Position numbers and translations under genes: made by a program
Assembly (NCBI GenBank): GCA_038245905.1
Contig: JBBRRY010000004.1
Span: forward strand, 1 to 64,000
From: Thermoanaerobaculia bacterium
GTDB lineage: Bacteria; Acidobacteriota; Thermoanaerobaculia; UBA5066
Direction: 5' to 3'
DNA: 64,000 nt
The notes under the pieces: generated by a model
The model's input: the letters and a program-made list of their open reading frames with translations, nothing else
Told to the model about the DNA's origin: nothing
The model's database searches: none
Shown: piece after piece, positions 182 through 47,686 of the stretch
Position numbering within the stretch: position 1 is the first letter of the stretch
How the letters are laid out: every line of letters starts with the position of its first letter

Positions 182-2128
182 CTACGTTCGCGACCGGAGG
201 AGCCCGGCGATGCTCCATGCCTGCGCGACGCAGCCGCCCGGGCGGTGCGGCGCGTCGCCGTCGAAGATCTCCGGAAGCTGGCCGAGGCCGTCGCCGAGCA
301 GGAAATCTCCGAGCGGGGCGAGGAGTTTGCGCATTGCCTTCGCGGTCCGCGGTCCGTCGCCGTGGACACGGCGGAAGGCCGTTGCGTAGGCTCCGAGAAG
401 CCAGGGCCACACCGTGCCCTGGTGATAGGCCGAATCGCGTTCCTCGGGACCCCCTTCGTAGCGGCCGCGGTAGGCGGGGTCCTTCGGCGAGAGCGTGCGG
501 AGGCCGAATGGCGTCAAGAGATGCTCTTCGACGATCGCGAGAACACTTCGCGCGAGCGCTTCCGGAACCATCGAATGGTGAAGGCTGACGGCGAAAACCT
601 GGTTCGGCCGAATGGAGGCATCACGCACGGGACCGTCGATACAGTCGACGAGGCCTGCACCCGTCTCGTCGGGAAAGACCGATAGAAAACTCGCGCGGCA
701 TCGCTCGGCACGTACCCGATAGGCATTCGAAGAATCTTCCTTCCCGATCCTCCTTGCGAAGTCGCTCATCGTCTGGAGCGCGTTGAACCACAGGGCCTGG
801 ATCTCGACGGGCTTTCCCCGGCGCGGGGTGATGGCGCGACCGTTCACGCGCGCGTCCATCCACGTGAGCGCCTGTCCGTCGGCGCCCGAAACGAGGAGGC
901 CGTCCTCGGCCGCACGAATGCCGAAGCGCGTCCCGCGCTCGTGCCACGCGAGGATGTCCGAAAGAACCGGGAACAGGCGATTCCCGACGAGGGCCATGTC
1001 GCCGGTCGCCTCCACGTACTGCCGCACGGCCTCGAAGAACCAGAGAGTGGCGTCGACCGTGTTGTATTCCAGTTCCTCTCCGCCGTCCGGGAACCGGTTT
1101 GGAAGCATTCCCTGGTTCACGTGCCCGGAAAATGCGAGGAGGATCTCCCGCGCGACCCCGGGCCTGCGCGTCGCGAGGGTGAGCCCCGGCAGCGCGATCA
1201 TCGTGTCCCGGCCCCAATCCGAGAACCAGGGGTAGCCGGCGATGACGGTCGCGAGGTCGCCGCGCGCGACGAGGAACTGATCGGCGGCGCGGTCGAGTGC
1301 ACGCCGGCGAGGATCGTGGCCCGCCTCGTGGGTCAGCTCCTCGCGGCGGGAGATCTCGGATTCTCTTAGAAAGTGAATATCAGACGCGGATCGTGGCGAC
1401 GTCGACGCAATGACGTTTGCCTCCCGGCGCGATGCCGGGCCGATAGGGATTTCTTCGAATGAGTAAGAGAGGGTCAGCGGATGCCAGAGGTCCTCACGGT
1501 AGTCGAAGCCGCGGCGTTCTTCCTCTTCATATTCGAAGGATCTGTACCAGTCGCCGGCTTGCGCCGCGCGTCCGTCGTGTGCGACGTACAGTGCCGGAAG
1601 ATCTTTGTACGGAGCAATCCTGATCCTGCCTTCGGCGAGCTCGACCGTCGGGTCGAGGTCCGCGTTCTCTTTCGTGAGCGCATGAAAGTTGCGGAAGGCG
1701 ACGAGGGGGCGGACCTCGAGACCGATCGGGCCCGCGTGGCCCCTGCTTTCTTTTAGGGTCCATGTCACGCACACGGTGCTCTCGCCGTGCCGCATGAAGA
1801 CTTCCTTCTCCACGACGACGCCCTCCACCCTCCAGGTGAACGTCGGGAACGGGTCCTTCCGGAAGCCGGTCAGAAAGCGGAAGCCCGCGGGGTGGATCGC
1901 GCCCGGGAAGCGGTTCGTCGACAGGTCGACGCGGCGGTCGCTCAGGATGAGGGTCTCTTCGAGCTTCGAGAGGAGGACGGCGCGGCCCACGGGAGGCCGC
2001 GTCGCGACGACGAGAAGCCCGTGATAGCGGCGCGTGTTCTCGCCGGTCGCCGTGGACATCGAATATCCGCCGAGGCCGTTCGTCTCGAGCCACTCGCGCC
2101 TGTCGGGCTCGTCCCTCCCGGGGGTCAT
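182..2128 (-). CDS. Glycogen debranching enzyme / amylo-alpha-1,6-glucosidase (archaeal-type GDE)
   Basis: [11 protein letters not shown]...TRRYHGLL N-domain; [42 protein letters not shown] and QAWS motifs. Confidence 0.92.
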
Positions 2129-4779: not shown

Positions 4780-4854
4780 GGTCGGTCTCCCGGACGCAAG
4801 GTTATACGGGGTCTTGCTCACTCGCGGTTCAGATGCCGGCTGGTGTCCTTCGTT

Positions 4855-7256: not shown

Positions 7257-8344
7257 CGGCCCGGCTGATAGATCTGGTCGAACGTGCCGCCGTCGTCGAA
7301 GTGGGCCTTCTGGGCCTTCCCCCATCCGCCGAAGACCTCGTCGATCGTGAAGAGCGTGAGCCGCGGGACATCGGCGGCGTGGGCTGCCGCGATCTTCGCG
7401 TCCCCCGGACGGTAGCGATGCCTCGCCGCGATGGCCTGCGCTTCCTCCGTGTAAAGAAACTCGAGGTAGGCCTGCGCTGCCGCGCGCGTGCCGTGCTTGT
7501 CGACGTTCTTGTCCACGAGCGCGACGGGCGGCTCGGCCACGATGCTCGTCGAGGGGAGCACGATCTCGAAATTCTCCCGGCGGGCCTCCTTTGTCAGGAG
7601 GAACGCCTCGTTTTCCCATGTGATGAGGACGTCTCCCAGGCCGCGCTCGCCGAACGTCGTCGTCGATCCACGGGCACCCGCATCGAGAACGGGCACGTTT
7701 CGCATGAGCCTCGCGAGAAACTCGCGCGCCGAGGCTTCGCTGCCGCCCGGCCTCTTCAGGGCGTAGCCCCATGCTGCGAGGTAGTTCCAGCGCGCCCCTC
7801 CGGACGTCCTGGGATTGGGCGTGATGACGGCGACGCCCGGCTTCACGAGGTCGTCCCAGTTTCGGATCTTCTTCGGGTTCCCCTTGCGCACGACGAAGAC
7901 GATCGTCGAAGTGTACGGAGAGCTGTTCCGGGGGAGACGCGATTGCCATTTGGCGGGCAGGAGGCCCCCATGGGCCGCGATCGCGTCGATGTCGCCCGAC
8001 AGCGCCAGCGTCACGACGTCGGCCTCGAGGCCGTCGATCACGGCGCGGGCCTGTTTGCCCGAACCGCCGTGCGACTGGTTGATCGTGAGCGGCCCATGAG
8101 AAGGCTCCCACCGCTTCCGGAAGGCTGCGTTGATTTCCTCGTAGAGCTCGCGCGTCGGGTCGTATGAGACGTTCAGAAGAGTCGTCGTGGAGGAGGCTGC
8201 GAGGAGGGAAGAAGAAGAGGGAGGAGAGAAAAAGATTTCTTTGAAGATGAATACAAGAGCGATGGCGAACGCGGCGCGCACGAGAGCGCGTTGGGCACGC
8301 GGCGGCAGCGGGAAAGGCGCGAGGCGCTTCGGTTCGGCTGACAC
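7253..8344 (-). CDS. sbp: Sulfate ABC transporter substrate-binding protein (Sbp/CysP family)
   Basis: [73 protein letters not shown]. Confidence 0.93.
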
Positions 8345-8383
8345 TTTCTAAAAAATCCTTTTTTTTCTCTTTCGCTCGAATGT

Positions 8384-8418
8384 ATACTAGTTATCATACC
8401 AATATAGTCAACTACTAT
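8384..8418. promoter_or_regulatory. Inverted repeat ATACTAGTT-N17-AACTACTAT; probable Rrf2 operator overlapping a sigma70-like promoter for sbp
   Basis: AT-rich spacer between divergent sbp and rrf2. Minus strand reads TTGACT (8411-8406)-N16-TAGTAT. One arm resembles IscR type-1 sites (TAGTTGACT). Confidence 0.6.
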
Positions 8419-8438: not shown

Positions 8439-8840
8439 GTGAAGCTCACCCGCCGAAGCGAATACGCCCTTCTCGCGCTGATCCATCTCGCGCGCGCGGA
8501 GGGGAAGGGTTACGTCAACGTCGCCGCGATGGCGGAGGCGCAGGGCCTGCCCGGCAAGTTTCTCGAGCAGCTCCTGATGGCCTTGAAGCGCGGCGGCCTC
8601 GTGAAGAGCCAGAAGGGGCCGCATGGAGGCTACCGGCTCTCGCGGCCCGCCGGGAAGATCTCCCTCGCCGAGATCATCCGGCTCCTCGACGGCGCCCTGG
8701 CCCCGACCGAATCGGTCAGCACCTACTTTTATGAGTCCACGCCCGTTGAGCGGGAGAAACGTCTCCTCCGCATCTTCAAGGAAATCCGGGACTTCGTCTC
8801 GACGAAGCTCGAGAAGACGACTCTCGCGGACGTTTCCTGA
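8439..8840 (+). CDS. Rrf2-family transcriptional regulator, cysteine-less (CymR-like)
   Basis: MKLTRRSEYAL...FLEQLL..LKRGGLVKSQKGPHGGYRL...ISLAEIIRLLDG...TTLAD. No Cys, so no Fe-S ligands. Divergent from the sulfate operon. Confidence 0.9.
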   Translation: MKLTRRSEYALLALIHLARAEGKGYVNVAAMAEAQGLPGKFLEQLLMALKRGGLVKSQKGPHGGYRLSRPAGKISLAEIIRLLDGALAPTESVSTYFYESTPVEREKRLLRIFKEIRDFVSTKLEKTTLADVS

Positions 8841-9289: not shown

Positions 9290-9930
9290 CTGCGGCCCTT
9301 CTCCTTCAGGAATGCATCCAGTGCGAGGACGCGACGCGCCGCCTCGACGGTGACGCGCACCGTGATCGTCGCACCCGTCACGGTGCGAAGGCCGCGCCTC
9401 TCGGACAGCTCATCGGTCAGTGTCTTCCCGGGAAACTGGCCGTACCACGCCCCGCGCGGGAGGTACTCCTCAGGTTCGGAGAAGGAGAGGACCTCGATGC
9501 GGGAGATCGCCCCCTTCGGGTCCACGGCGACGAGGATCGTCTCGGGCAGCGTCCTGACGACGTGTGTGTCGAAGTACGCGGTGCCGGCATCCTTCCCGTC
9601 GGCCGTCGCGGCGTAGTACGCGACGAGGCCCGTCGGAGGCGCGCCGCCGGAACGGCGCGCGACCTCGGCGCGGTCGGATTCCGAGAGGAACGCCGTCTTC
9701 CGCGCCACGACCGCGCCTTTGGGGAACACGAGGCGCAGAGCTTCCTCCTGGGTCAGGAAAGTCTTGGCTTCGGAAGAAGAAGAGAGAAGAACGAAGAGGA
9801 ACAGTAAGATTTCTTTGAATGAAAGAGAGAGAGAGCGGCGGCGGGCTGGCGAGTCGCCTGCGATCCGCGCCTCGCTCGGGCCGCACCTATCTTCCCTTCT
9901 AAGAAAATCTTCTCTCTTCTCTTTTCTCAA
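9286..9930 (-). CDS. Exported FMN-binding (flavinylation target) protein
   Basis: Signal-like segment ending SSSEA; VDPKGAISRIEVLSFSEP..Y; WYGQFPGKT; TVTGATIT matches the [S/T]GA[S/T] flavinylation motif. Confidence 0.82.
   Translation of the reverse strand: MRKEKREDFLRREDRCGPSEARIAGDSPARRRSLSLSFKEILLFLFVLLSSSSEAKTFLTQEEALRLVFPKGAVVARKTAFLSESDRAEVARRSGGAPPTGLVAYYAATADGKDAGTAYFDTHVVRTLPETILVAVDPKGAISRIEVLSFSEPEEYLPRGAWYGQFPGKTLTDELSERRGLRTVTGATITVRVTVEAARRVLALDAFLKEKGRR
9895..9912 (+). repeat. Dispersed AT-rich motif, copy CCTTCTAAGAAAATCTTC
   Basis: Exact reverse complement at 21504-21521 and a 1-mismatch copy at 35125-35142. Paired with an inverted copy at 9806-9821. Confidence 0.75.
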
Positions 9931-11258
9931 AACTCATACCCCAGCGCGACGTTGAACTGGTTGACGCCGGTGTTCGCGGCGTTCTTGCGCCATTGTCCAT
10001 CCATTTTCACGACGACCTGCGGGATGGGCTTGAAGACGACGCCGGCCGTCCACTGCGTGACGTCGTTCTCGGGATTGCGCTCATAGCCCGCCGGGACTTC
10101 CCTCTGCGTGTCCCAGGCTTCGTATCGCACGAAGGGCGTCAAGGTCATGCGGCACTTCCGAACGAGGGAGAGAACGTCGAAGCCGGATTCCACGTACCAG
10201 CCTCCCTGCTTGCTGCCGACGGACTCGTCGCCCTCGAAGTTGTTGATCTGGTTGATCGCGGCCGCGTCGCCGACAGTGGACCGGGCCCAGACAGCCCGGA
10301 ACGAAGCTCCGCGCCATTTCGCGTCGCCATGAAGGTCGACGAACGTCGTCCGCGCCGCGAAGCCTTCGCCGGCGGGCGTCACCTGGCCTTGGCCGGCGTT
10401 GCCCGTGAAGAACGATGCGCCGAGGACGACGCCGGGCAGCCCGTTGTAGTCGAGACGCCCCGTGAGGGCGAAGTTGCGAGCGAGGGCGAGCGAGCCCTCC
10501 TGCCGCCCCTCCGCGAGTCCGTCCGCCGCGTAGCGTGCCGCGTTCAGGCCGTTTACGAGATACAGGCGATACGAGAACGGACCTAAGTCGCCCCACCCGC
10601 CGAAGCCTATCTCGCGCCAGGTGGAGGGGAGGATCACGGTCTCGACGTCCGGCCGGCGCGTGCCCAGGAACACGGGAGGCTCGTGGAGTTGATTGATGAG
10701 GCCGACCGGGATGAGCACGAGGCCCGCGCGCACATTGAAGGCGCGGTTCCCGCTCATCCAGTCGAGATAAAGGAACTCCACCTCGGTCTCGCCGCCCTTG
10801 TCACTCGCGGTGACTGCGTGCTCGTACTCGATCTCGCTGTTGAAGACCAAGTGGGCGTCGAATTTGTAGCCGAAGTAGAGGACGGCGCGCGCGACGTCGA
10901 TCGTGGGCGTGAGGTTCGACGGCATTCCGTCCTCGCGCGATCCGGAGAAGTTCTGGTAGAGGATCTCGCCGTAGCCTCCGATCGAAACGCCCTTCTTCTC
11001 GTAGACCTTCGAGGCTGCTGGTCCGAGCCCGAGCGTCGGGGCCGCTGCCGCAGCGATCTCCGCGGGACCCGCCTCGCCGAGCCGAATGCCCTCTATCTCC
11101 TTCGTGAGGACGTCCACCTTCTGTTCCAGCTCCCTGAGCCGGTCGGCGTCGGCCTTCGGCGGATCGTCGGCTCGAAGAGGGGAGACGAAGAGACTGCTGA
11201 GAATGAGAGAAAGACGGATTGTGGCGACGGCGCCGCACGTCTTCAGAGGCTGAATCAC
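9927..11258 (-). CDS. Outer-membrane porin-like beta-barrel protein
   Basis: Signal peptide, coiled-coil N-terminus, SIGGYGE, FNSEIEYEH, INQLHEPP.F..RP.VE..ILPSTWRE, and a C-terminal GYEF (aromatic BAM signal). Confidence 0.8.
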   Translation of the reverse strand: MIQPLKTCGAVATIRLSLILSSLFVSPLRADDPPKADADRLRELEQKVDVLTKEIEGIRLGEAGPAEIAAAAAPTLGLGPAASKVYEKKGVSIGGYGEILYQNFSGSREDGMPSNLTPTIDVARAVLYFGYKFDAHLVFNSEIEYEHAVTASDKGGETEVEFLYLDWMSGNRAFNVRAGLVLIPVGLINQLHEPPVFLGTRRPDVETVILPSTWREIGFGGWGDLGPFSYRLYLVNGLNAARYAADGLAEGRQEGSLALARNFALTGRLDYNGLPGVVLGASFFTGNAGQGQVTPAGEGFAARTTFVDLHGDAKWRGASFRAVWARSTVGDAAAINQINNFEGDESVGSKQGGWYVESGFDVLSLVRKCRMTLTPFVRYEAWDTQREVPAGYERNPENDVTQWTAGVVFKPIPQVVVKMDGQWRKNAANTGVNQFNVALGYEF

Positions 11259-12250
11259 GGGTGGGCTCCTTCAAGAGATTTCTTTGAATGGGAAAGAAAG
11301 GCAGGCGCGAGGGTTACGAGGTGCTCCATCCCAGGCGTCATGGCGGCCCGCGGCGGTTTTCCCTCTTCACCTTCTAAGAGAAATAGCGTTTCATGAACCA
11401 CGCCATCCGCACGCAGTCGCTCCGACAGCGCCATGCCGTCCTTCGGTCCGAGGACGAAAAGAGCCGTGGACAGAATGTCTGCGTTGAGGCCCGTCGGCGC
11501 GATGACCGTGACGGAGCCGAAGTCGGGCGCGGGCTCGCCGGTGCGCGGGTCGAGGAGATGGCCGATGCGGCGGCCGTTCACGACGAGGCCGCGCTCGGAA
11601 TTGCCGGATGTCGAGGCGGACGCGTCCTTCAGGCGGATCGTCGCGACTGCGCGCGAACGGTCTCCAGGATGCGCGACGGAGACGACCGTCTCCGGGCCGA
11701 ACGCAAGGACCTGCCCGCCCAGATCGAGGACGAGCGCAGTCGCCCCCACGGCACGGGCGGCCTCGGCCGCGCGGTCGAGGGCCCAGCCCTTGCCCCATGC
11801 GCCTTCGTCGATTCCGGCGGCGGGGTCGAGGCGGGAAAGAGAAAGAGAAGATTCTCTGAAGGTGAAGAGGGGAGCACCCGACGCGGTGCGGGCGGAGGCC
11901 AGTTCCTGCGGCGTTGGGATTCGGCCACCCGTGCGCAATCCCCAAGCCCTCACGAGAGGCGCCACCGTCGGGTCAAAGGCGCCGCCCGTTCTCTCCGACC
12001 ATTCGAAGAGATTCCTCAGCAAATGGAAGAGTTCCGGCGTCACGGGCTTCTGATCTCCGGGGGCCGCCGCGTTCAGCCGGGCGAGAGGCGTGTCCTCCCG
12101 CCACGTCGACAGCAGCCGGTCGACGACTTCCACGGCACGCACGGCCGCCTCGCTCGCGTCGAGGGCGCGCTCTCGCGTCGGCGCCGAAATCGTCAGCGTG
12201 AGCGCGGTCCCCATGACGGCAAGATGGCGGGCGATGGCCTCGGGATACAT
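11255..12250 (-). CDS. apbE: FAD:protein FMN transferase
   Basis: MGT, GGAFDPTVAPLVRAWG, KGWALD, DLGGQ, STSGNSER, HLLDPRTG, SVTVIAPT..ADILSTALFVLG. Confidence 0.9.
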   Translation of the reverse strand: MYPEAIARHLAVMGTALTLTISAPTRERALDASEAAVRAVEVVDRLLSTWREDTPLARLNAAAPGDQKPVTPELFHLLRNLFEWSERTGGAFDPTVAPLVRAWGLRTGGRIPTPQELASARTASGAPLFTFRESSLSLSRLDPAAGIDEGAWGKGWALDRAAEAARAVGATALVLDLGGQVLAFGPETVVSVAHPGDRSRAVATIRLKDASASTSGNSERGLVVNGRRIGHLLDPRTGEPAPDFGSVTVIAPTGLNADILSTALFVLGPKDGMALSERLRADGVVHETLFLLEGEEGKPPRAAMTPGMEHLVTLAPAFLSHSKKSLEGAHP

Positions 12251-13667: not shown

Positions 13668-14458
13668 CAGGCGTCCGGGAGGAAAAAGCCGAAGCGCTTC
13701 AGCGTCCCTTGCGCCTTCGGGCCGAGAAGGAACATCCTCAAGGCGCGCGCGGCCTCCGGTTCCTTCGTCGACCTGAGGATCGCACCGCCCTGCTCGATCT
13801 CTGGGTAGGACGAGAGGGGAATCTCGACGAAACGGCCCGTCGTTCGCAGCCCGGGCGCGACAGCGAGCCCGAGGGCGATGATTCCCGCGTCGGCACTGCC
13901 GGTCTCGACGAACTGAGCTGTCTGGGCGACGTTCTCGCCAAGGACGAGCTTCTCCTTCACGGCGTCGTACACGCCGAGGGAACGCAGGGCCGCCTCTGCC
14001 GCCCTCCCATACGGCGCATGCCGCGGATTCGCGATCGCGACGTGCCGAACACGTGGATCGGCGAGCGCCTTGATCCCGCTCTTCTCGATTTCGAGGGGGG
14101 ACGCGAGCGGCACGAAGAGGACGATGCGGCCGACCGCATACAGGAACCGGGTGCCCTCGAGCACGAGGCCCGCCTCCTCGAGCTTCCTCGGGTACTCGGC
14201 GTCGGCCGAAAGGAAGACGTCGAACGGGGCGCCGTTGGAGAGCTGCGAGAAGAAATTGCCGGACGAGCCGTACGTGACCTTCACGTCGAGGTCCGGTCGC
14301 TCCTTCCTGAAGTCGACGAGCACGGAGTCGAGGGCGAACTTCAGGTCGGCGGCGGCAGCGACGCTGACGTCGGCCGCGGGTGCCCTCATGGCGCCGAGGA
14401 GGAGCGCGAGGGCGAGGGCGGAGCGAACAACGGGGGCGACGGCGCCGGAAGCAAGCAT
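13667..14458 (-). CDS. modA: Molybdate ABC substrate-binding protein
   Basis: VAAAADL, YGSSG, GAPFDVFLSAD, IANPRHAPYGRAA, LGENVAQTAQFV. ATG at 14458 chosen. Confidence 0.92.
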   Translation of the reverse strand: MLASGAVAPVVRSALALALLLGAMRAPAADVSVAAAADLKFALDSVLVDFRKERPDLDVKVTYGSSGNFFSQLSNGAPFDVFLSADAEYPRKLEEAGLVLEGTRFLYAVGRIVLFVPLASPLEIEKSGIKALADPRVRHVAIANPRHAPYGRAAEAALRSLGVYDAVKEKLVLGENVAQTAQFVETGSADAGIIALGLAVAPGLRTTGRFVEIPLSSYPEIEQGGAILRSTKEPEAARALRMFLLGPKAQGTLKRFGFFLPDA

Positions 14459-14479
14459 TATATTTCTTAGAATATAACG
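14456..14479. promoter_or_regulatory. ModE box CATTATAT-N8-ATATAACG
   Basis: Matches the ModE consensus CGTTATAT-N-ATATAACG and sits at the modA start, next to modE. Confidence 0.8.
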
Positions 14480-14513
14480 GACGAGGTGCCCCGGCAACCG
14501 CCCCCCGGCCCTC

Positions 14514-14906
14514 TTACCTTCTAAGAAATCTCTTCAGCTTCCCCGCATCCGCAGCCGTCGCCCGGAGTGCGTTACGCACCATTCGGCGATAGAGCGCGAG
14601 GACCTTCGCTCCCGCGGACGTCAGCGTCGCTCCGCCGTGGGCTGCGCCCCCGCGCGCGAGCGCGACGAGAGGATCGCGGAATGCGGCGTTCATCGTCTTC
14701 ACGAGCGTCCAGGCGCGCATGTAGGACATGCCGAGCCCGGCCGCGGCCCGCCGGAGGCTCCCGGTCTCCCGTACCGCCTCGAGGAGATCGGCCTTACCGG
14801 GTCCGAGGAGGATCGTCCCGCCGCGCACGAGCCGCAGGCGGGGCTTGAGGGCGACCGCCTTCCGGCTCGGGCTGCCCACGCCGCGAGCCGGGGGTTTTTC
14901 CTTCAC
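14514..14906 (-). CDS. modE: ModE-type winged-helix regulator (HTH only, no Mop domains)
   Basis: LGPGKADLLEAVRETGSLRRAAAGLGMSYMRAW.LV..MN.....PLV...RGG...GGA.LT. GTG at 14906. Confidence 0.85.
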   Translation of the reverse strand: MKEKPPARGVGSPSRKAVALKPRLRLVRGGTILLGPGKADLLEAVRETGSLRRAAAGLGMSYMRAWTLVKTMNAAFRDPLVALARGGAAHGGATLTSAGAKVLALYRRMVRNALRATAADAGKLKRFLRR

Positions 14907-14913
14907 GCGGCGA

Positions 14914-15123
14914 TTATGGAGCGCCGGCGTTCGCGAGACCGATCCGACCGAGCGCGCGGGAAAAGAGGTAGACGTATCCCGCGAACCCTCCGCTGCCGAA
15001 CGCCGCGCGCAGGATGCCGTGCTGCGCGGCGGCGAGCAGTCCTCCGGCGCAGAGGCACGCGAGCGAAAAGCACAGAAGGAGCAGGGGGACGGTTGCGGAC
15101 CTGAGGCGGGCCTTGAGGGACAT
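14914..15123 (-). CDS. Possible small membrane protein (69 aa)
   Basis: Fills the gap between modE and the KdpE-like box and has two hydrophobic stretches. No recognisable family. Confidence 0.35.
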   Translation of the reverse strand: MSLKARLRSATVPLLLLCFSLACLCAGGLLAAAQHGILRAAFGSGGFAGYVYLFSRALGRIGLANAGAP

Positions 15124-15157
15124 CTCACTCACAGGAGACAACTTCCACCTGGAGCTC

Positions 15158-15200
15158 GAAGGAAGTCCGGAGAAAGACCTAAGGAAGTTCTAAAGACCGG
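15158..15200. promoter_or_regulatory. KdpE/OmpR-type direct-repeat site (TAAG-N7-TAAA; 11-bp periodic array)
   Basis: GAAGGAAGTCC/GGAGAAAGACC/TAAGGAAGTTC/TAAAGACCGG upstream of the K+ permease. Reverse strand reads TTTA-N7-CTTA, like the E. coli KdpE site TTTA-N7-TTTA. Confidence 0.6.
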
Positions 15201-15254
15201 CGCCGCCCGTGCTCTGTCGTCCCTACACTCGCGGCTCGGCGGTTCCGCCGCGCG

Positions 15255-17231
15255 ATGGCCGAGTCCAGCAAGCTCTCCACAGTCCTCCTCGGCAAGCCGC
15301 GCGACGTCAAGGACCCGAACGTCTTCCACCGCGTGTCTCTCGTCGCCTTCCTTGCGTGGGTCGGGCTCGGGGCCGACGGCCTGTCGTCGTCGGCCTACGG
15401 CCCGGATGAGGCGTTCCGCGCCCTGGGCCAGCATCGCTCCCTCGCGATCGTCCTCGTCGGGATGACGGCGATCACGGTCGGCATCATTTCGTTCGCGTAC
15501 TCGAACCTCATCGAGCACTTCCCGGGTGGGGGCGGCGGCTACCTCGTAGCGACGAAGCTCCTCGGTCGGAAGGCCGGGGTCGTGTCCGGCTGCGCACTTC
15601 TCGTGGACTACGTCCTCACGATCGCCACGTCGGTCGCCTCGGGGTGCGATCAGCTCTGGAACTTCCTCGGTCCGGGGATGGCGCGATACAAGCTTCCGGC
15701 CGAGATCGTGGTCCTCGTCCTCCTGATCTTCCTGAACCTCCGCGGGGTGAAGGAATCCGTGACGGTCCTCGCTCCGATTTTTCTCGTCTTCATCGGGACA
15801 CACGCGTTCGCGATCCTCTATTCCTTCGGTGCGCACCTCGGAGCGCTTCCCGAGGTGTTCTCGGGCGCCGCGCGCGATTTCCACGCCGCGAAGGCGACGA
15901 TCGGCTTCTGGCCCCTCGCGTTCATTCTCCTCAGGGCCTACTCGATGGGCGGCGGTACGTACACGGGCATCGAAGCCGTTTCGAACGGCGTCACGATGCT
16001 CCGCGAGCCGCGCGTGAAGACGGGGAAGAAGACGATGCTCCTCATGGCTGTCTCGCTGGCGTTCACGGCCGGCGGCATCCTCTTCGGCTACCTACTCGTC
16101 GCGGCCCGCCCCCACGAGGGCAAGACGATGAACTTCGTCCTTTTCGACGCCCTGTTCGGGAGCTGGAGGATCGGCGGACTCGGCGTCGGGAGCGCCTTCG
16201 TCCTCACGCTCCTCATCGCCGAGGCTGCCCTGCTCTTCGTGGCGGCACAGACGGGCTTCCTCGACGGCCCGCGCGTCCTCGGGAACATGGCGATCGATTC
16301 GTGGATGCCGCACCGGTTCTCGCAGCTCTCGGACCAGCTCGTGACCCAGAACGGCGTCTTCCTCATGGGCCTCGCGGCGGCGGCGGCCCTCCTCTACACG
16401 CACGGCGACATCACGATGCTCGTCGTCATGTATTCCATCAACGTCTTCGTGACGTTCTCGCTCACGGAACTCGGCATGTCCCTGCACTGGATCGTGGAGC
16501 GCCACCGTGAACCCCATTGGAAGCAGCTGCTCGCGATCCACGGCACGGGCCTCGTCCTGTGCCTGACGATCCTCTGCGTCACGCTCTACGAGAAGTTTGG
16601 CGAGGGAGGCTGGATGACGGCACTCGTGACGAGCGCGACCATCGGCGTCTGCTTTTTGATCCGGCAGCACTACGCGCGCGTCGCCGACGACCTCAAGAGG
16701 CTCGACGACATATTGGTGCCCGTCACGGCGATTCCCGTGGCCGACAGCTGCGTTACGGAGCTCGACCACGGGCTCCCGACGGCGATCCTGACCGTCGACC
16801 GCTTCTCGGGATACGGCCTCCACCAGATCCTGAGCATCCACATGCTCTTCCCGAACTACTACAAGAACCTCGTCTTCGTATCCGTGGCCGTGGTGGACTC
16901 CGGCAACTTCAAGGGCAGCGAGGAGGTCGGGCGCCTCGAGGCGAACACGCGCGAGAACCTCGAGAAATACGTCGCCTGGAGCCGCGCGAAGGGCTGGAAT
17001 GCCGCTTACCGCATGGCTGTCGCGACGGAAGCCGTGGACGAGGTCGTCAAGATCTGCAAGGAACTCCAGAAGGAGTTCCCGCGGGCGGTCGTGTTCAGCG
17101 GCAAGCTCGTCTTCAAGAAGGAGCAGTGGCACCACCGCCTCCTCCACAGCGAGACCGCGATGGCGATCCAGCGCCGCCTCCAGTTCGAAGGCGTTCAGTC
17201 GATCGTGCTGCCGGTCCGCGCGTCGGTCTAG
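15255..17231 (+). CDS. APC-superfamily permease, KimA/YdaO-like K+ transporter
   Basis: GADGLSSSAYGPDE, FPGGGGGYLVA, ALLVDYVLT, NLRGVKES, TGIEAVSNGV; cytosolic C-domain ending LLHSETA..IQRRL. Adjacent to kdpDE. Confidence 0.85.
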   Translation: MAESSKLSTVLLGKPRDVKDPNVFHRVSLVAFLAWVGLGADGLSSSAYGPDEAFRALGQHRSLAIVLVGMTAITVGIISFAYSNLIEHFPGGGGGYLVATKLLGRKAGVVSGCALLVDYVLTIATSVASGCDQLWNFLGPGMARYKLPAEIVVLVLLIFLNLRGVKESVTVLAPIFLVFIGTHAFAILYSFGAHLGALPEVFSGAARDFHAAKATIGFWPLAFILLRAYSMGGGTYTGIEAVSNGVTMLREPRVKTGKKTMLLMAVSLAFTAGGILFGYLLVAARPHEGKTMNFVLFDALFGSWRIGGLGVGSAFVLTLLIAEAALLFVAAQTGFLDGPRVLGNMAIDSWMPHRFSQLSDQLVTQNGVFLMGLAAAAALLYTHGDITMLVVMYSINVFVTFSLTELGMSLHWIVERHREPHWKQLLAIHGTGLVLCLTILCVTLYEKFGEGGWMTALVTSATIGVCFLIRQHYARVADDLKRLDDILVPVTAIPVADSCVTELDHGLPTAILTVDRFSGYGLHQILSIHMLFPNYYKNLVFVSVAVVDSGNFKGSEEVGRLEANTRENLEKYVAWSRAKGWNAAYRMAVATEAVDEVVKICKELQKEFPRAVVFSGKLVFKKEQWHHRLLHSETAMAIQRRLQFEGVQSIVLPVRASV

Positions 17232-28262: not shown

Positions 28263-28265
28263 GCG

Positions 28266-28712: not shown

Positions 28713-28841
28713 ATCGCGAGCAATCCTACTCCCGGCCCGGTCTCCCGAGGCGGCGTCCGCAAAAAGTGTCCGCCCGACGGTATGCTCCATGCAAGAGGGC
28801 CGAGTGAGGGTCTCCCCATGCGGAGTCTCGGAGGATCAATC

Positions 28842-29474: not shown

Positions 29475-29483
29475 GGGGCCGCG

Positions 29484-30011: not shown

Positions 30012-30178
30012 GTGGCCTCAAGATGGCCCGAAAGCGCGCCCCGCGCAAGGCCGACCGATGGTCTGGCCGCGATGAACGTCGGTTCCGGGACGCCAGACGG
30101 GCTTCCTGGCGTGCCGAGGCCATCTGCTGCGAGCGTCGTCCGGGGGCCTGGCGCTCCCCCGGACGGTACACTCGGCGT

Positions 30179-32074: not shown

Positions 32075-34072
32075 GTGAGGGAAGCCGGACCGTCATTCAG
32101 GCTTGGCGCGGCCAGCGGGGCCGCGCTCGTTGTGCTCGTCGTCCTCCTCGCGACGGTCGACACGCGCGCGTTCGGTCTCATTCCGGACGGTAAGGAGATG
32201 CTGTCGGCATCGGCCGCCTTCTCGCGTTTCCTCGAAATCGGCGTTTCGCGCGACTTCGTCAATGCGCCGCGCCGTCCCGGAGGCGATGCCGTGTCGCGCT
32301 ACGGGATGGGACTTTCCATCGCCGAGGCCGTGCCGGGAGCCGTGATGCGTGTGATCCGGATCGCCGCCCCTTCGGCGCCGTCGGCGCCCGTCTTCGTCCT
32401 CTTGCCGATCGCGTGCCTCGTCGCCTCGGCATGGGCGACGGCCCGGGCCCTGCTCCTCGTCGGTGTAACGCTCCCCTGGGCCGCGGCGTCGGGCGCGGGC
32501 CTCGTCCTCGCGACGCCGCTCTGGGGATACGCGGCGAGCGACTATGGTGAGCCGTTGCAGGCGTGCTGCGTTGCGATGCTCCTGCTCGCGGCCGTCGAGC
32601 TCCGCGATGCCCCGGCCTCGCGCCGCTGGCAGATCGTCGCGGGGCTCGCCGCGGGGTTCGCGATTCTCACGAAGACCCTGCTGCTCATCGCGGTCGCACC
32701 GTTCCTGGTCTATTTGTTTTTCGGAAGAGAGATGAGAAAGAAAGAATTCCTAGAAGGGAAGAGAGGAAACGCGTCAGCGCGGCGTGCCGCCGAGGCGGGT
32801 GTTCGCCGCCCGGGGGCGCCATGGCCGCTGCTTCTTTCATTCGCAGGAGTCCTCTTTTTCTGGTCTCTCCTCGAGCTCGTCCGTTTCGGAAAGCTGTTCG
32901 GCGGTTACTCCGGGGAGACGTTCACCTATCCCTTCTTCACGGGTCTTCTGCGCCTGACGCTCCTTCCGAACAAAGGCCTCTTCTGGTATGCCCCGATCGT
33001 TCTCCTCGCGCCGGTCGGCTTCGTCGCGCTGTTCCGCCGCGACGCGCGTCTCGCTTTCGCCTCCTCGGCTTCGGCCGTTTCGCTGCTCGTCGCGGCTTCC
33101 GCGTGGTGGGCGTGGGACGGGCAGGCGGGATGGGGGCCGCGCCTGCTCCTGCCCGCGCTCCCCCCCCTCGTCTTCCTTGCCGGCATCGCCTGCGCGTCGT
33201 CCTTCCGGCCTGCCCGCATCGCGGGCACGCTCGCGCTCTGCGTCGGATTGGGCGTCAATCTGCTCGGCGCCCTCGTGCCGTTTCCAGCCGTCTACGCGCT
33301 CTCGTCCGTCGTGCCGCCTCAGCCGATCGCGGAAGCGCGGGCGGAGGGAACGGCGTACGAAGTCGAACGCGGGTCGGACGGCATCTTGCGTGCCACGGCC
33401 CCGCATCACCTTTCGCTCACACCCGCATGGAGTCCGATCCGGGTTCACGCGCTTCTGCTCGCCGCGAAGCTACGGGGGAACGCCGCGGAGACTCTCTCGA
33501 GGGAGGGGTTTCCGCGTCTCGATCCGCCTTTCGGACCCGTCTTGCCGAAAGAGCCCGCTCCCGCGATGGCCCTCGCGCTTCGGCCGCTCCGCATCGGTTG
33601 GGGCCGCGAATATTTACTTGAAGGGAAAGAGAGACTCTCGGATCCGTGGGACGACGCCGCGCGTGACCAGACGATCCGCGCGATCGATGTGAAGGACTAC
33701 GTGCGGGCACAGGAGCTAGGAGAGGAAATCCTGAGAAGGAAGAACGGGGATTCGAATTCTGCGAATGACCCTCACGTTGTCGCGCTGATCGCCGAGTCGA
33801 TTCGCCTTGGCAGCGGCCGGGCCGCCGGCGCGCAATCGCTTGACTCGGGCACCGCCGCGTCCCTTTCCTACCTTTCCAGGAAATCTTCCTCTTCTTCTTT
33901 CGCCTGCAATCCCTGGATTCTCTTCGTCCGCGCGATGGCGGAGCCGCCGGGCGACTTCTCATGCATCCCCGAGCCGGGGCGGGAGGGATTCGCGCGAAGC
34001 CTCGACGCGGCGCGCCGGCGGGGCTGGAGCCTTACCTCGTGGGCGCGGGCGCTCCGGATGGGGGCGCCATAG
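32075..34072 (+). CDS. Polytopic membrane protein, GT-C-type glycosyltransferase-like
   Basis: SRYGMG, LATPLWGYA...YGEP, KGLFWYAP, W.WDGQAGWGPRLLLP; many TM helices. Confidence 0.65.
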   Translation: MREAGPSFRLGAASGAALVVLVVLLATVDTRAFGLIPDGKEMLSASAAFSRFLEIGVSRDFVNAPRRPGGDAVSRYGMGLSIAEAVPGAVMRVIRIAAPSAPSAPVFVLLPIACLVASAWATARALLLVGVTLPWAAASGAGLVLATPLWGYAASDYGEPLQACCVAMLLLAAVELRDAPASRRWQIVAGLAAGFAILTKTLLLIAVAPFLVYLFFGREMRKKEFLEGKRGNASARRAAEAGVRRPGAPWPLLLSFAGVLFFWSLLELVRFGKLFGGYSGETFTYPFFTGLLRLTLLPNKGLFWYAPIVLLAPVGFVALFRRDARLAFASSASAVSLLVAASAWWAWDGQAGWGPRLLLPALPPLVFLAGIACASSFRPARIAGTLALCVGLGVNLLGALVPFPAVYALSSVVPPQPIAEARAEGTAYEVERGSDGILRATAPHHLSLTPAWSPIRVHALLLAAKLRGNAAETLSREGFPRLDPPFGPVLPKEPAPAMALALRPLRIGWGREYLLEGKERLSDPWDDAARDQTIRAIDVKDYVRAQELGEEILRRKNGDSNSANDPHVVALIAESIRLGSGRAAGAQSLDSGTAASLSYLSRKSSSSSFACNPWILFVRAMAEPPGDFSCIPEPGREGFARSLDAARRRGWSLTSWARALRMGAP

Positions 34073-35750
34073 GCGGTGCGACTCCGCGAAGGCGAATCAA
34101 CAGCTGGGCGTCGCCGAACGGCTCGACCGAGATGGCGCGCGCCTCGAATCCGCGGCGCAGCGGCGGCAGCCAGCCCCGAAGCCACACGAACTTGGGCCAG
34201 GATTCGGTGTTCTTCTCGATCGCGGCCGCCATGTCCCAGAGGAAGCGCGAGAAGAAGACCGTGTCGACCGGCGCGTCGGGGGTCATGGCCTGGCCGGCGA
34301 TTCCGGCGGCCCGCGCGCCGGACTCGTCGACGACGAGGGCCGTGACGCCGACGCGCCCGAGGTCGCCGCGCCGCACGCGCTCGAAGACGCGCCCCTGCTC
34401 CTGGCCCCAATCCACGTTCGAGTCGGAGAGGATGGCGGGGATGCCGGCAGGGCCTCCGGCGAGGACGTTGCCGAACGAGATCTCGCGGCCGAGGCGGAGC
34501 GCGGACTCTCCGGCGGCGAGGACGACGACTCCGGCGAGCACCGCGCGGAACGCTCGCGGCCGGCGGGCCAGGAGCGTCCTGCCGGCGCCGGCCGCCGCGA
34601 CGAGGAGGAACGGCACGGCGGGAAGGGCGTGCCGTACGCCGATGTTCACGTTCGAGGTGCAGGCCGCGGCGAGATACGCGCCACCGATCGCCGCCGGGAG
34701 AGCGGCGCGGGTGATGAGGAGCCGCCGGAGCCGCGAGCCACGGAAGAGGCCGAAGCCGGCGCCGAGAAACGCGGCCGTGAACGCGAGGACGGCTGCCGCC
34801 GTCAGCTTGATCCCGAGGGCCACCAGAAAGTAGAAGAGGTGTCCCTTCCCTGAGATTTCGCCGAAGAAATAGTTGAAACGTTCTCCCGGGCCCGCGACTC
34901 CCTGCACGAAGAGAAGCCCCGCACCGTACGCGGCGATCGCCTTCGGAAACGTGCGCGCGAGCGCCACGACGGCACGCTCCTGGGGCAGCCCTCCGAATTC
35001 GTGCGCGATGCCCGCCTGGAAGGCCGAATCGCTCGTACCGGCAAACGCGATGGACTGGATGGCGAACAGGGTCAGGAGGGCGATTCCAATGAGCAAGACA
35101 GCGGAGTAGAGAGCGGGAAGAGAGAAAGATTTTCTTAGAAGGTGAAGAGGGGGGCCGGAAATACCACCTGCTGCGAACCGAACCATCGCAATGACAGTGA
35201 AGACAGCGAGGAATGGGAAAGCAGAGTATTTCGACGCCATCGCAAGCCCATAGAGAATGCCGCTCGCGACGAGCCAGACTCTTTTTCGTTCTTGAGCTGC
35301 GTATTCCAGCGCGAGCGCTGCCGCGACGAGGAAGAACGTGACGAGGACGTCGCTCTGAACGAGCGTGCCGTGGCCGCGCAGCGTCGGCTCGATCGCGACG
35401 AGCCCCGCGGCGGCGAGGCCCGCGGCGTTTCCGGCGAGCGCGCGTCCAAGGAGTCCGGTCACGGCCGCGAGGGCCGCGAAGAGGAAGGGCATGGGCGCGC
35501 GGCCTGCACGCGTCTCGTCGATCTCCATCGCGGGCTTCTCGCGCGGGAGAGAGACTCCGGCGAGGAGCTTCATCAGGACGGGGTGCTCGAAGTTCGAGAC
35601 CATTCCGGGGCCGTAGCGCCACTCGCGTGCGGCGGCGAGGTGTGCGGGCTCGTCCGAGGTCGTCCAGAGGGAGAAGCGCGCGCTCTCGGCGCCCGCGAGG
35701 GCGAGACACGAGAGGATCGCGAGCGCGAATGCGAAGAGCCGCGAGGTCAC
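34032..35750 (-). CDS. ArnT/PMT-like (GT83/GT39) membrane glycosyltransferase
   Basis: TSDEPAH, NFEHPVLMK, HGTLVQSD, SKYSA, NIGVRH, DSNVDWGQ. Confidence 0.75.
   Translation of the reverse strand: MTSRLFAFALAILSCLALAGAESARFSLWTTSDEPAHLAAAREWRYGPGMVSNFEHPVLMKLLAGVSLPREKPAMEIDETRAGRAPMPFLFAALAAVTGLLGRALAGNAAGLAAAGLVAIEPTLRGHGTLVQSDVLVTFFLVAAALALEYAAQERKRVWLVASGILYGLAMASKYSAFPFLAVFTVIAMVRFAAGGISGPPLHLLRKSFSLPALYSAVLLIGIALLTLFAIQSIAFAGTSDSAFQAGIAHEFGGLPQERAVVALARTFPKAIAAYGAGLLFVQGVAGPGERFNYFFGEISGKGHLFYFLVALGIKLTAAAVLAFTAAFLGAGFGLFRGSRLRRLLITRAALPAAIGGAYLAAACTSNVNIGVRHALPAVPFLLVAAAGAGRTLLARRPRAFRAVLAGVVVLAAGESALRLGREISFGNVLAGGPAGIPAILSDSNVDWGQEQGRVFERVRRGDLGRVGVTALVVDESGARAAGIAGQAMTPDAPVDTVFFSRFLWDMAAAIEKNTESWPKFVWLRGWLPPLRRGFEARAISVEPFGDAQLLIRLRGVAPPMAPPSGAPAPTR
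35125..35142 (-). repeat. Dispersed AT-rich motif copy inside the ArnT-like gene
   Basis: AAAGATTTTCTTAGAAGG within a purine tract. Confidence 0.7.
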
Positions 35751-41754: not shown

Positions 41755-41782
41755 GACAGCGCGGATTATAGGGATCGCCCGC

Positions 41783-42556
41783 ATGAACCCGCGCGAATAC
41801 GAAATCATGTTCGCCCGCGAAGATGCCTACTGGTGGTATCGCGGAATGCGGTGCGTGACCCGGGCGTTCGCGCCGGGCCTCTTCGCGGCGCCTGCCGGGT
41901 CCCGGTTGCTCGACGCGGGCTGCGGTACAGGCCGCAACCTTCAGGAGCTCGAGGCCGCGGGAGGACTTGCGGTGGGCGTCGATGTTTCTCTGCGCGCGCT
42001 CGGCCTCGCGCGGCGGAGAGGCCGGACCCGGCTCGTGTGCGGCTCGATCGAGGCTCTGCCGTTTCGCGGCGGCGCGTTCCTCGGCGCGCTCTCGCGCGAC
42101 GTCCTCTACATGGTGCCCCGCCAGGAGGCCGCCCTGCGGGAGATCGCGCGAGCCCTCGAGGAAGGCGGGACGCTCGCGATCTCGTCACCCGCATTCGTCG
42201 CGCTCGCGGGCGCGCACGACGTCGCGGTCAGCGCCCTGAGACGCTACACCGCGAAAGGCCTTGAGAAGCTGCTGAAAGACGCCGGACTCTCGGTGATCCG
42301 CACGAGCTACGCCAATCTCTTCCTGGCAGGCCCTATTTGGATTCTTAGAAAGGTGACGAGAGCGAAGGCGCGCGGCCGCCCTTCCACGGAAGTCGCCTCC
42401 GAATTCCCTCTTTCTCCCAAACCATTCGAAGAAATCTTCTTCTTTCTTCTGTCTTTCGAAGCGCGCCTCGTTGCCCGCGTGCGCCTCCCGTTCGGGTCGA
42501 CGGTCTTCGTCCTGGCCGAAAAGCCCGTTCAGGGCACGAGCGTCGCGGCGAAATAG
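41783..42556 (+). CDS. Class I SAM-dependent methyltransferase
   Basis: EDAYWWYRG, LLDAGCGTG, ALPF, PAF..L.G.HD...RRYT, PFGST. Confidence 0.88.
   Translation: MNPREYEIMFAREDAYWWYRGMRCVTRAFAPGLFAAPAGSRLLDAGCGTGRNLQELEAAGGLAVGVDVSLRALGLARRRGRTRLVCGSIEALPFRGGAFLGALSRDVLYMVPRQEAALREIARALEEGGTLAISSPAFVALAGAHDVAVSALRRYTAKGLEKLLKDAGLSVIRTSYANLFLAGPIWILRKVTRAKARGRPSTEVASEFPLSPKPFEEIFFFLLSFEARLVARVRLPFGSTVFVLAEKPVQGTSVAAK
42339..42439. repeat. Inverted pair of the dispersed AT-rich motif inside the methyltransferase gene
   Basis: GGATTCTTAGAAAGG (42339-42353) ... CATTCGAAGAAATCTTC (42423-42439), followed by a pyrimidine tract. Confidence 0.65.
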
Positions 42557-45525: not shown

Positions 45526-45599
45526 GGGGAGGACACCGGACGAGACACGAGAGGAGCAAGGGACGTGCCGGAAGTGACGCGAGCCGCTAAGATCTCACT

Positions 45600-46388: not shown

Positions 46389-47686
46389 ACGCTGCACGGC
46401 CCCTGCGGCGCGGCCGACTCTCCGGAGACCTCCTCGTCCCCGGCAGCAAGAGCATCACGAATCGCGCTCTCGTGGCTGCGGCCTGCGCGGACGGGGAGAG
46501 CACGCTGCTCAATCCGCTGGACTCGTCCGACACACGCGCTCTGGCCGCGGCGCTGACGCAGCTCGGAGCGGAGATTTTCTTTGAGGGTGTGAGATGGAGG
46601 GTGCGCGGACCGCTCCGGCCCCGCGGCGACTCGGCGCCGGAGCTCGAGATCGATGTGGGAGACGCCGGCACTCCCGCGCGCTTTCTCGGTGCACTTCTCT
46701 CCGCGCTGCCGGGGCGGTTCGTCCTCGACGGCAGCCCGCGGATGCGGGAGAGGCCCATGTCTCCTCTTTTCGAAGCAATCCGAAATCTGAGGGGAGACGT
46801 GACGTGCCTCGTGCGCGAAGGCTTCCTGCCCGCCAGGATCAGGGGTGGCTCGCTCGGCGGCGGCCACGTCGCGATCCGCGGAGACGTCTCCTCACAGTTT
46901 CTCTCGGCTCTCATGCTGATCTCGCCTCTCGTGCCGGGAGGCATCGAGCTCGAAATCGACGGACCTCTCGCGTCCGCTTCCTACCTCGCCCTGACGCGCC
47001 GCGTCCTCGAAGGTTTCGGAGCGTCCGGCGGCGGCTATCGTCCCGCGCGCTACCGCGTGCCGGGCGACGACTCGGCGGCGTGCTTTCCAATCGCGGGAGC
47101 GATTGCGTCCGGCGGGCGCGTCACGCTGCGTGGCCTCGCGCGCGATTCCGAGCAGCCGGACGCGGCCTTTCGCGCGTGGGCGGCGTCCGCCGGGGGCACG
47201 CTCGGCTGGGAGTCTTCGACGGAAGGCGAGGATGCACTCACGGTCTCGGGGCCTCCCGGTGGTGCGCAGGCGCTTCTTCCGGTCACTGTCGACGTGGACG
47301 CGGCTCCCGATGCCGCGCTCCCTCTCGCGGCGCTCGCGGCGTTCGCGGACGGGACGTCCCGGCTCACGGGCGTCGCGCGCCTGCGCGAGAAGGAGTCCGA
47401 CCGCCTCGCGGCGGCCCACGATCTCCTTACCCGCGCCGGAGCAGTGGCTCGCGAGGAGCGGGACTCGCGCGGCCCCGTCCTCGTCGTGGACGGCCGAATG
47501 GGGTTGCCGCGGGCCGCGGAGTTCGCGGCACACGGTGATCACCGCGTGGCGATGTCGGCGGCCGTTCTCGCGCTCACGCTGCCCGAGGGCTCGACGCTCG
47601 ACCATCCGGAATCGGTGGCGAAGTCATGGCCGGGATTCTGGAGCGCGTGGGACGCGCTGATCGAGGGAGATCGCGGAATCAGGTGA
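46385..47686 (+). CDS. aroA: 3-phosphoshikimate 1-carboxyvinyltransferase (EPSP synthase)
   Basis: PGSKSITNR, GDAGT.ARF, MRERPM, SSQFLSAL, LREKESDRL, DHRVAM, KSWPGF. Confidence 0.9.
   Translation: MNAARPLRRGRLSGDLLVPGSKSITNRALVAAACADGESTLLNPLDSSDTRALAAALTQLGAEIFFEGVRWRVRGPLRPRGDSAPELEIDVGDAGTPARFLGALLSALPGRFVLDGSPRMRERPMSPLFEAIRNLRGDVTCLVREGFLPARIRGGSLGGGHVAIRGDVSSQFLSALMLISPLVPGGIELEIDGPLASASYLALTRRVLEGFGASGGGYRPARYRVPGDDSAACFPIAGAIASGGRVTLRGLARDSEQPDAAFRAWAASAGGTLGWESSTEGEDALTVSGPPGGAQALLPVTVDVDAAPDAALPLAALAAFADGTSRLTGVARLREKESDRLAAAHDLLTRAGAVAREERDSRGPVLVVDGRMGLPRAAEFAAHGDHRVAMSAAVLALTLPEGSTLDHPESVAKSWPGFWSAWDALIEGDRGIR

Follow-up and report, generated by a model that had tools for sequence, protein, structure and literature searches.

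A genus-restricted AT-rich DNA motif arranged as divergent pairs, mostly within genes, in Thermoanaerobaculia: a candidate bipartite site for a chromosome-level reader

Introduction

Noc-binding sites, SlmA-binding sites and matS are single short palindromes, present in tens of copies, which mark or avoid the chromosome terminus. The DNA uptake sequences (DUS) of Neisseriaceae and the uptake signal sequences (USS) of Pasteurellaceae occur at a density of roughly one per kb. Here we describe a dispersed AT-rich motif in a 64,000-nucleotide (nt) stretch of DNA from a Thermoanaerobaculia bacterium (contig C4, positions 1-64000 of genome G000; referred to as the window) and in the genus to which it belongs. 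Like Noc, SlmA and matS sites, the motif is found in genes regardless of coding, has an uneven, conserved regional distribution and shows no replication polarity. Unlike them, it forms approximately 350 bipartite and asymmetric loci, which are depleted in the origin region and abundant on a contig whose skew switches in a terminus-like manner. With DUS and USS it shares that it is a lineage-specific short word present in hundreds of copies on both strands, absent from close outside relatives and substituted into coding sequence at tolerant places with a reading-frame bias. It differs from them in that the unit is an arm of about 45 nt, the arms form divergent pairs 30-380 bp apart that are mostly intragenic and are not terminator hairpins, the density is lower, rare codons are used, and copies thin out around oriC.

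Two types of mobile repeats are also similar in some respects. The repetitive extragenic palindromes (REP), organized as BIME or as REPIN with RAYT, comprise hundreds of short repeats in inverted doublets with spacers of tens of bases. However, REPs lie outside genes, are palindromic and depend on a Y1 transposase for movement, whereas in the present case 78% of the copies are intragenic, the arms are not palindromic hairpins and the spacers are host genes. The Rickettsia palindromic elements (RPEs), like the copies described here, are translated within numerous unrelated genes. According to PMC10969869, RPEs are inserted units of about 150 bp with a conserved peptide; in the present case, the arms enclose ancestral sequence and many of them are substitutions.

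In the literature on repeats of Thermoanaerobaculia or Acidobacteria (supplements being outside the coverage), no description of the motif was found. Twelve-letter forms of the core retrieved, among the matches listed, only unrelated organisms or primers. The arms are signals at the DNA level that are kept in one genus, have a centre-out polarity, are blind to gene structure and replication strand, and are thinned at oriC.

Results

An AT-rich arm of about 45 nt is strongly over-represented

The source genome of the window, G000, is a 3.80-Mb assembly (67.8% GC, 113 contigs, completeness rating 96%) from a genus of GC-rich sediment bacteria. All assemblies used are drafts. Logan contigs of run X1, possibly the source sample, show the AT-rich islands of the window unchanged; no RNA run was listed for the stretch. 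An alignment of 238 copies showed that the core TTCNAAGAAATCT is embedded in a pyrimidine-rich arm of approximately 45 nt, which extends from -16 to +30 around the core. The arm is asymmetric: a pyrimidine-rich inner flank begins at about -16, near CCCTCTTCACC, and is followed by the core and by an outer pyrimidine tract that fades by about +30. Conservation declines gradually on both sides, so the arm edges are soft. The consensus TTC-N-AAGAAATCT includes a TTC-N3-GAA dyad.

Exact TTCNAAGAAA was found 10 times in the window (0.16 expected), a number reached in none of 100 shuffles. In the whole genome, the 13-mer TTCTAAGAAATCT had 22 exact, 92 one-mismatch and 124 two-mismatch matches. The respective expectations from composition are 0.003, 0.2 and 5.3; in total, 238 matches were observed versus approximately 5.5. 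For genome-wide scans, a 39-nt matrix with a threshold of 14 bits was used, which was built from copies that it then finds; the controls are independent of its building. The matrix detected 600 matches above 14 bits, corresponding to one per 6.3 kb, and 431 above 20 bits. An order-3 Markov genome of the same size contained 14 and 1, respectively. Genes were predicted using our own codon-usage caller (3277 genes, 93.6% coding). Among intragenic sequences, 455 matches exceeded 14 bits and 326 exceeded 20 bits. When synonymous codons were shuffled within genes, retaining protein and codon usage, 100, 107 and 110 matches remained above 14 bits and 40-46 above 20 bits. This 4.3-fold and 7.6-fold real excess was obtained with the codon-preserving control proposed in a first-pass annotation of the window, which had been made from the sequence alone.

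Most of the 23 copies listed in that annotation were recovered: 19 exceed 14 bits, while those at 724, 12000, 42339 and 46766 score only 7.4-11.6 bits and have a partner-type orientation. Four additional copies in the window (8775, 11191, 21448 and 32840) were absent from the list. The 18-mer reported from three genes is indeed exact at 9895, present as the exact reverse complement at 21504, and has one mismatch at 35125. The region from 47 to 64 kb contains no copy, as previously stated; the best matrix score there is 3.5 bits.

The core also occurs in longer forms. Variants of 14 letters with an extra C or A (TTCTAAGCAAATCT, TTCTAAGAAAATCT) are strongly enriched genome-wide in G000 (in the window, see 21594-21611), and the 14-letter variant TCTAAGCAAAT was found six times in 431 kb. 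A putative reader would evidently tolerate a one-base length change in the core.

Arms are organized as divergent pairs

Neighbouring copies no more than 400 bp apart comprised 174 '-+', 15 '+-', 25 '++' and 30 '--' combinations. The '-+' layout is divergent, with the pyrimidine tracts facing outward. The orientation preference suggested by the pairs of the window is a genome-wide property (174 '-+' versus 15 '+-'). Grouping of the copies resulted in 356 loci, among them 129 '-+' pairs, 166 single arms, 14 '--+', 11 '-++' and 3 '+-'. The occurrence of the multi-arm patterns '--+' and '-++', in contrast to the rare '+-', shows that extra arms obey the centre-out rule. For 60 of 165 apparent singles, a partner scoring above 4 bits was present on the expected side, versus 4 with such a partner on the wrong side. 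Single arms are mostly pairs with a degraded partner.

The pairs had been described as about 85-110 bp apart. They are real, but genome-wide the '-+' spacing is continuous from 32 to 377 bp (median 117.5) without size classes. Partner arms are no more similar to each other than random arms (z = 1.5 for the inner flank, 0.1 for the core and -0.2 for the outer tract). Each arm matches the consensus independently of its partner.

Copies are translated and are placed irrespective of gene structure

Inside called genes, 470 of the 600 copies (78%) were found, 248 in sense and 222 in antisense orientation. They are evenly distributed along genes. They are read in all frames and on both strands, which extends to the whole genome what had been noticed in the window. 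A single gene contains both arms in 124 of the 174 '-+' pairs, and the motif uses rare codons. The variable base N of the consensus is T in 79 of 130 intergenic copies (61%). In contrast, T is found at this base in only 3 of 117 sense copies of the frame TTC NAA, where T would give TAA, and in 10 of 81 antisense copies of the frame that would read TAG. Because T is avoided where an in-frame stop would arise, the copies must be genuinely translated.

The 130 intergenic copies do not favour gene starts over stops, and their distances to starts (2-371 bp) have no mode. A promoter or ribosome-site function was rejected based on this lack of start preference and on the consensus, in which no sigma-70-like hexamer spacing was seen by eye.

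The motif is restricted to one genus and was built in place

A survey of the class included 121 genome rows, 9 from the host genus and 112 others (one row, G004, is unpublished and supports no claim). The exact core was present in 38-129 copies in each of the 9/9 host-genus genomes, in 0-4 copies in the 112 other genomes, and in 0-1 copies in four other genera of the same family. A new finding of this analysis is, therefore, that the exact core is restricted to one genus. With one mismatch allowed, 322 matches were detected in the congener G014 (2 in a backwards control) and 9 in G052, which belongs to a motif-free sister genus (1 in the control). Matches in G018 and G023 are due to chance in AT-richer genomes, because the backwards control gave about half as many. 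Matrix scans revealed 54 copies in 225 kb of G014 versus 1 in 400 kb of G052; approximately 90 kb of loci belonging to other genera in this family yielded none. A search for AT-rich words of similar enrichment was negative in G052 (400 kb), G024 (80 kb) and G025 (140 kb); the sister-genus samples are small, and all of the G024 sequence as well as 40 kb of that from G025 were taken from contig starts.

A different kind of repeat was noticed in G025, from another genus of the class. Its contig C1 (140 kb) harbours a GC-rich palindromic word around CCCACTGGGTGCG, in which one 10-mer occurs 26 times, about 87-fold over expectation. This word is REP-like and unrelated to the AT-rich arms.

The origin of the arms was analyzed in 17 G000 genes with 30 arms, which were compared with G052 orthologues of at least 55% identity. 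Eighteen arms aligned gap-free, six with 1-3 gap columns and six with 5-14 gap columns. Four of the five arms of at least 40 bits were among the gapped arms or at protein ends. Weak arms lie on conserved residues, where they are written by a few changes to rare codons (AroA QLGAEIFFEGVRW versus QLDAEVLFEGEIW; also DSSSFKEIFSSSP versus DSASFEDSFSAAP); the earlier claim that copies fall in tolerant protein segments does not apply to these. In 8/8 intragenic pairs, the spacer is orthologous protein sequence and thus ancestral gene sequence (7-38 identical residues in 14-70 columns, the shortest 2/4, with 0-10 gap columns). Since the spacers are ancestral and most arms are gap-free, the pairs are not inserted units. 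The orthologue comparison, which the first-pass annotation had suggested for distinguishing insertions from substitutions, thereby spoke against the insertion of whole pairs. These alignments show that the arms were built in place by point substitution and short tract growth.

Positions are also kept within the genus. For 17 of 26 intragenic G000 copies, the G014 orthologue has a copy of matching position and orientation that exceeds 14 bits, and the reverse comparison also gave 17/26. A G014 copy above 8 bits was present for 20 of the same 26 copies, and 3 had none. At third codon positions with A or T in G000, the base is identical in G014 at 67.6% of 74 sites in cores versus 11.3% of 6529 sites elsewhere. 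This wobble identity is due to constraint, or continuing drive, on the DNA itself. Together with the codon shuffles and the reading in all frames on both strands, it bears out the initial idea that DNA rather than protein is constrained.

Arms were also seen in every member of a group of paralogous proteins of approximately 580-915 amino acids (aa), which are encoded on G000 contigs C24, C35 and C29 and match the same three G052 loci (examples are C24:11311-14058, 14055-16562 and 27546-30014).

Copies are thinned around oriC

Along the chromosome, locus gaps are over-dispersed (coefficient of variation 1.25). Of 154 bins of 20 kb, 39 are empty, and the mean of 3.3 copies is exceeded by a variance of 10.6. 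A regular spacing of loci was rejected on these grounds. Motif-poor contigs have normal GC content and normal GC content at third codon positions (GC3). One poor region, C18:20-40 kb, belongs to the core genome: it is syntenic in 9/9 congeners, its single copy is kept in place, and four other species show the same scarcity. The explanation that poor regions are foreign or misbinned DNA was rejected, because GC and GC3 are unchanged and one poor contig is syntenic in 9/9 congeners. Protein conservation does not limit the density either: orthologue identity is 76.7% for genes with copies and 79.0% for those without (p = 0.25).

The poor regions include the origin. In the congener G088, the stretch C4:1-483,380 contains zero exact matches versus approximately 11 expected, and it holds dnaA (346 kb), a parB-type gene (338 kb) and the cumulative GC-skew minimum (340-360 kb). 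By matrix, 21 copies were detected in 0-480 kb versus 33 in 480-800 kb of this contig. In G000, dnaA is located on the poor contig C3, and the contigs mapping to the origin stretch have 16 copies in 369 kb (0.43 per 10 kb) versus 1.70 per 10 kb elsewhere. The G014 contig with the origin-side parB contains 2 exact matches in at least 317 kb versus approximately 10 expected. A second new finding is that the motif is 2.4-3.9-fold depleted around oriC.

Arm orientation is independent of GC skew, with 169 '-' and 167 '+' arms where the skew is positive and 136 and 128 where it is negative. The ori/ter polarity of orientation considered in the first-pass annotation was hence not observed. Contig C1 of G000 is dense (91 arms, 2.6 per 10 kb). 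At approximately 120-140 kb of C1, GC skew changes from plus to minus in a terminus-like manner, and that 20-kb bin has 9 arms.

Sites in the window

The gene labels given in the first reading of the window were supported by Pfam matches to Chromate_transp, SBP_bac_11, FMN_bind, ApbE and EPSP_synthase. A first divergent pair of the window (8219-8372; cores 8233-8245, -, 44.5 bits, and 8346-8358, +, 36.1 bits) has its left arm in the signal-peptide region of an Sbp-type gene and its right arm in the spacer to a divergent gene for a 133-aa protein. G014 has a 48-bit copy at the place equivalent to the left arm. Between the right arm and the 133-aa gene beside sbp lies an AT-rich stretch (8372-8415) with dyad-like halves (GTATACTAGTTATCATACCAATATAGTCAACTACTAT), resembling a regulator operator.

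A second pair (9793-9923; cores 9807, -, 43.3 bits, and 9897, +, 34.2 bits) is located in the 5' part or upstream of the FMN_bind gene, immediately past the stop of a 443-aa gene; the G009 (a further congener) and G014 loci have pairs at corresponding places. The ApbE gene carries one divergent pair in its C-terminal tail (11262-11398; cores 11276, -, 33.8 bits, and 11372, +, 22.8 bits), for which G014 has 25-bit copies, and one pair inside the ApbE domain (11834-12028), in which core 11848 (-, 26.8 bits) is accompanied by a + arm below the threshold (about 12000, 10.1 bits). The 5' end of the second SBP_bac_11 gene has a divergent pair at 14446-14545 (cores 14460, -, 28.0 bits, and 14519, +, 37.3 bits).

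The interdomain linker of ChrA contains a '--+' cluster (21434-21622; cores 21448, -, 18.5 bits; 21507, -, 32.5 bits; 21596, +, 21.1 bits). According to the alignment, this linker is about 25 aa longer in the genus than in sister genera; one arm lies on aligned linker residues, and the sister genera have a gap opposite the other arm and its pyrimidine tract. The 646-aa open reading frame 32132-34072, for which no Pfam family was found, has a divergent pair at 32729-32866 (cores 32743, -, 36.6 bits, and 32840, +, 23.2 bits) and a wide one at 33596-33900 (cores 33610, -, 21.5 bits, and 33874, +, 38.5 bits). A methyltransferase gene contains, in its 3' part (42325-42451), core 42425 (+, 42.2 bits) together with a - arm below the threshold at about 42339 (8.5 bits), and G014 has a 42-bit copy. 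A weak pair on conserved AroA residues (46559-46794) combines core 46573 (-, 18.1 bits) with a + arm at about 46766 that likewise stays below the threshold (7.4 bits). At this site, QLGAEIFFEGVRW aligns with QLDAEVLFEGEIW of G052 without gaps, indicating substitution.

The remaining sites are unpaired or weak. Two - arms (1345-1471; cores 1359, 16.9 bits, and 1447, 29.8 bits) lie in the GDE_N-GDE_C linker of a glycogen-debranching-type gene. A PMT_2-type membrane glycosyltransferase gene carries a single strong - arm (35114-35152; core 35128, 37.4 bits), which is missing at the same place in G014 (-30 bits). Further single arms were detected at 8763-8801 (+; core 8775, 21.1 bits) and, in the 443-aa gene, at 11177-11215 (-; core 11191, 25.3 bits). 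The copy first reported at 724-740 is a sub-threshold + arm (712-750, 11.6 bits).

Discussion

The reading we favour, at a probability of roughly 40%, is that each locus may be a bipartite recognition site for a putative genus-specific DNA reader acting at the chromosome level. A chromosome-organising bipartite site was one of three candidates in the first-pass annotation and fits best, being consistent with the strict polarity, with the conservation of positions and with the lower density near the origin; another of them, a decayed miniature element, found no support. The site would consist of two independent arms of about 45 bp with one asymmetric consensus, placed divergently across 30-380 bp of host sequence. 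A sequence-specific reader found only in the genus, either a protein or a ribonucleoprotein, would bind each arm in a fixed orientation and work on the pair. Its role could be compaction, bridging or loading of a DNA-handling machine, and it would be kept off the origin domain and act outside transcription, translation and transposition. Selection for binding, balanced against protein constraint, could account for the graded match strength. Taken further, the loci might constitute an undescribed kind of chromosome 'address' system, with approximately 350 polar bipartite landing sites written in rare codons, at which a lineage-specific reader loads or anchors a chromosome-handling machine except at the origin domain, sites and reader having arisen together in the ancestor of the genus. 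As a whole, this elaborated version is doubtful.

Several points weigh against a chromosome-level reader. No reader was found: there is no expansion of the ParB_N or HU/IHF family in the genus (ParB_N genes: 2, 3 and 2 versus 2 and 2 in sister genera; HU/IHF genes: 4, 4 and 4 versus 4 and 3). A rigid looping protein would usually impose a periodicity on the spacing, and the pair spacing is aperiodic (periods of 2.5-40 bp all below power 6). The evolution of two 45-bp arms at each of about 350 loci through selection alone is demanding. Depletion at the origin is partial, with G088 pairs 4 and 30 kb from dnaA. Moreover, stronger purifying selection near the origin on a mildly costly, driven motif would mimic the trough, and therefore the trough does not decide between a chromosome-level reader and a DNA-uptake signal. 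Finally, the gene calls rest on our own crude caller.

As an uptake signal, the motif would be a genus 'dialect' comparable to DUS and USS: a competence receptor prefers motif-containing DNA, and uptake followed by recombination drives matches wherever proteins tolerate them. This would explain the hundreds of copies limited to one genus (600 versus 14 expected; 9/9 genus genomes versus 0-4 copies elsewhere, the lineage-restricted over-representation typical of DUS and USS), the graded matches substituted into coding sequence and weaker on conserved residues, the reading-frame bias with stop avoidance, and the positions largely shared between species. The behaviour in coding regions agrees with PMC2817400. 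ComEC is present in the genome, and a ComEA-like helix-hairpin-helix gene was recognized by eye; ComEC, however, says little, because 10/14 control genomes also have it. The model leaves unexplained the 174:15 pair polarity at 30-380 bp and the containment of 124/174 pairs within one gene. The density is below that of DUS and USS, and conserved core regions of 75-480 kb are nearly motif-free. Further, the motif is written in rare codons, whereas USS correlate with preferred codons (PMC2817400). The closely spaced, intergenic terminator hairpins of DUS and USS (cf. 10.1101/2025.10.24.684340) are not seen at spacings of 32-377 bp with 124/174 pairs intragenic. On balance, we consider an uptake signal rather unlikely.

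Two loci near competence-type genes were noticed. C40:15798-16255 of G000 is one of nine loci with at least four arms and lies in the gene directly upstream of a ComEC-type gene (C40:16586-18952). The gene C12:35351-35794 encodes a small secreted protein with helix-hairpin-helix repeats, ComEA-like by eye; arms flank it on both sides, a strong one at the 3' end and a weak one over the ribosome site and start codon.

Another explanation is that the arms are decayed terminal inverted repeats of an in-frame miniature element similar to RPEs, which underwent a burst in the genus ancestor. The arms are inverted like element ends, the motif is confined to one genus, 4/5 arms of at least 40 bits coincide with orthologue gaps of 5-14 columns or protein ends, the ChrA linker is longer by about 25 aa, and RPEs are a precedent for in-frame repeats (PMC10969869). 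However, the spacers of 8/8 intragenic pairs are orthologous host protein sequence, 18/30 arms are gap-free, the continuous spacing does not reveal a discrete element length, and the arm edges fade gradually instead of ending at sharp terminal boundaries. Partner arms are no more alike than random arms, wobble positions are maintained instead of decaying, and among 30 long-range '-+' combinations of unpaired arms, none was conspicuous as the boundary of a transposase-sized unit. From the alignments, whole-pair insertion appears largely refuted, and we regard an element origin as improbable. An autonomous parent element was rejected as well, the 30 long-range combinations being unremarkable; the two that span a single gene were translated, without application of a family scan. 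Regarding REPs, the location of 470/600 copies in called genes and the avoidance of stop codons differ from an extragenic repeat, and Y1_Tnp (PF01797) had 0 matches in G000 (96% complete), while the same search was positive in 6/14 control genomes.

An RNA hairpin, in which the arms pair in transcripts of either strand and serve as a terminator, processing site or stabiliser, has a slim chance of being correct. The layout of the pairs is identical from both directions, and in the folds of two pairs the arms were partly or completely base-paired (z = -1.37 and -2.34 versus shuffles). Yet partners show neither excess complementarity nor covariation, the loops would be 30-380 nt of coding sequence, most pairs are within translated genes, and no Rfam family matched in the window. 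The minimum-energy fold at 9770-9950 pairs the tracts and leaves the two cores unpaired. The same two results, partner similarity equal to random and no Rfam match, separate the loci from terminators and conserved hairpin RNAs of the TRIT type. The balanced orientation relative to skew (169 '-' / 167 '+' and 136 / 128) likewise separates them from Chi and KOPS, which are replication-skewed.

It is hardly credible that the arms are recombination sites at which a master invertase flips the DNA between them: one consensus does occur as inverted repeats at many loci, many of them intragenic, but the spacers encode conserved protein segments (e.g., the C28 51620/51738 pair, with 16/27 spacer columns identical), so that flipping would wreck about 120 genes, and among the joints listed for contigs of four runs (16 kb, six pair loci; contigs drop rare variants and show presence only) none was at a pair.

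Sites such as these, graded and built by substitution, offer a clean model for the conflict between a DNA signal and protein coding. Should the motif serve in uptake, it would add another uptake-sequence system to those outside Proteobacteria, one with an unprecedented paired form. If a dedicated reader exists, as in the chromosome-level interpretation that we favour, the motif would be a natural example in which hundreds of essential genes have to accommodate a long, specific DNA signal and pay a measurable coding cost for it. The sharp genus boundary, with full sets in 9/9 genomes and 1 copy in 400 kb of the sister genus, should make such a reader findable by comparative genomics. It would provide a handle on chromosome organisation or exchange in an uncultured group of Acidobacteriota.

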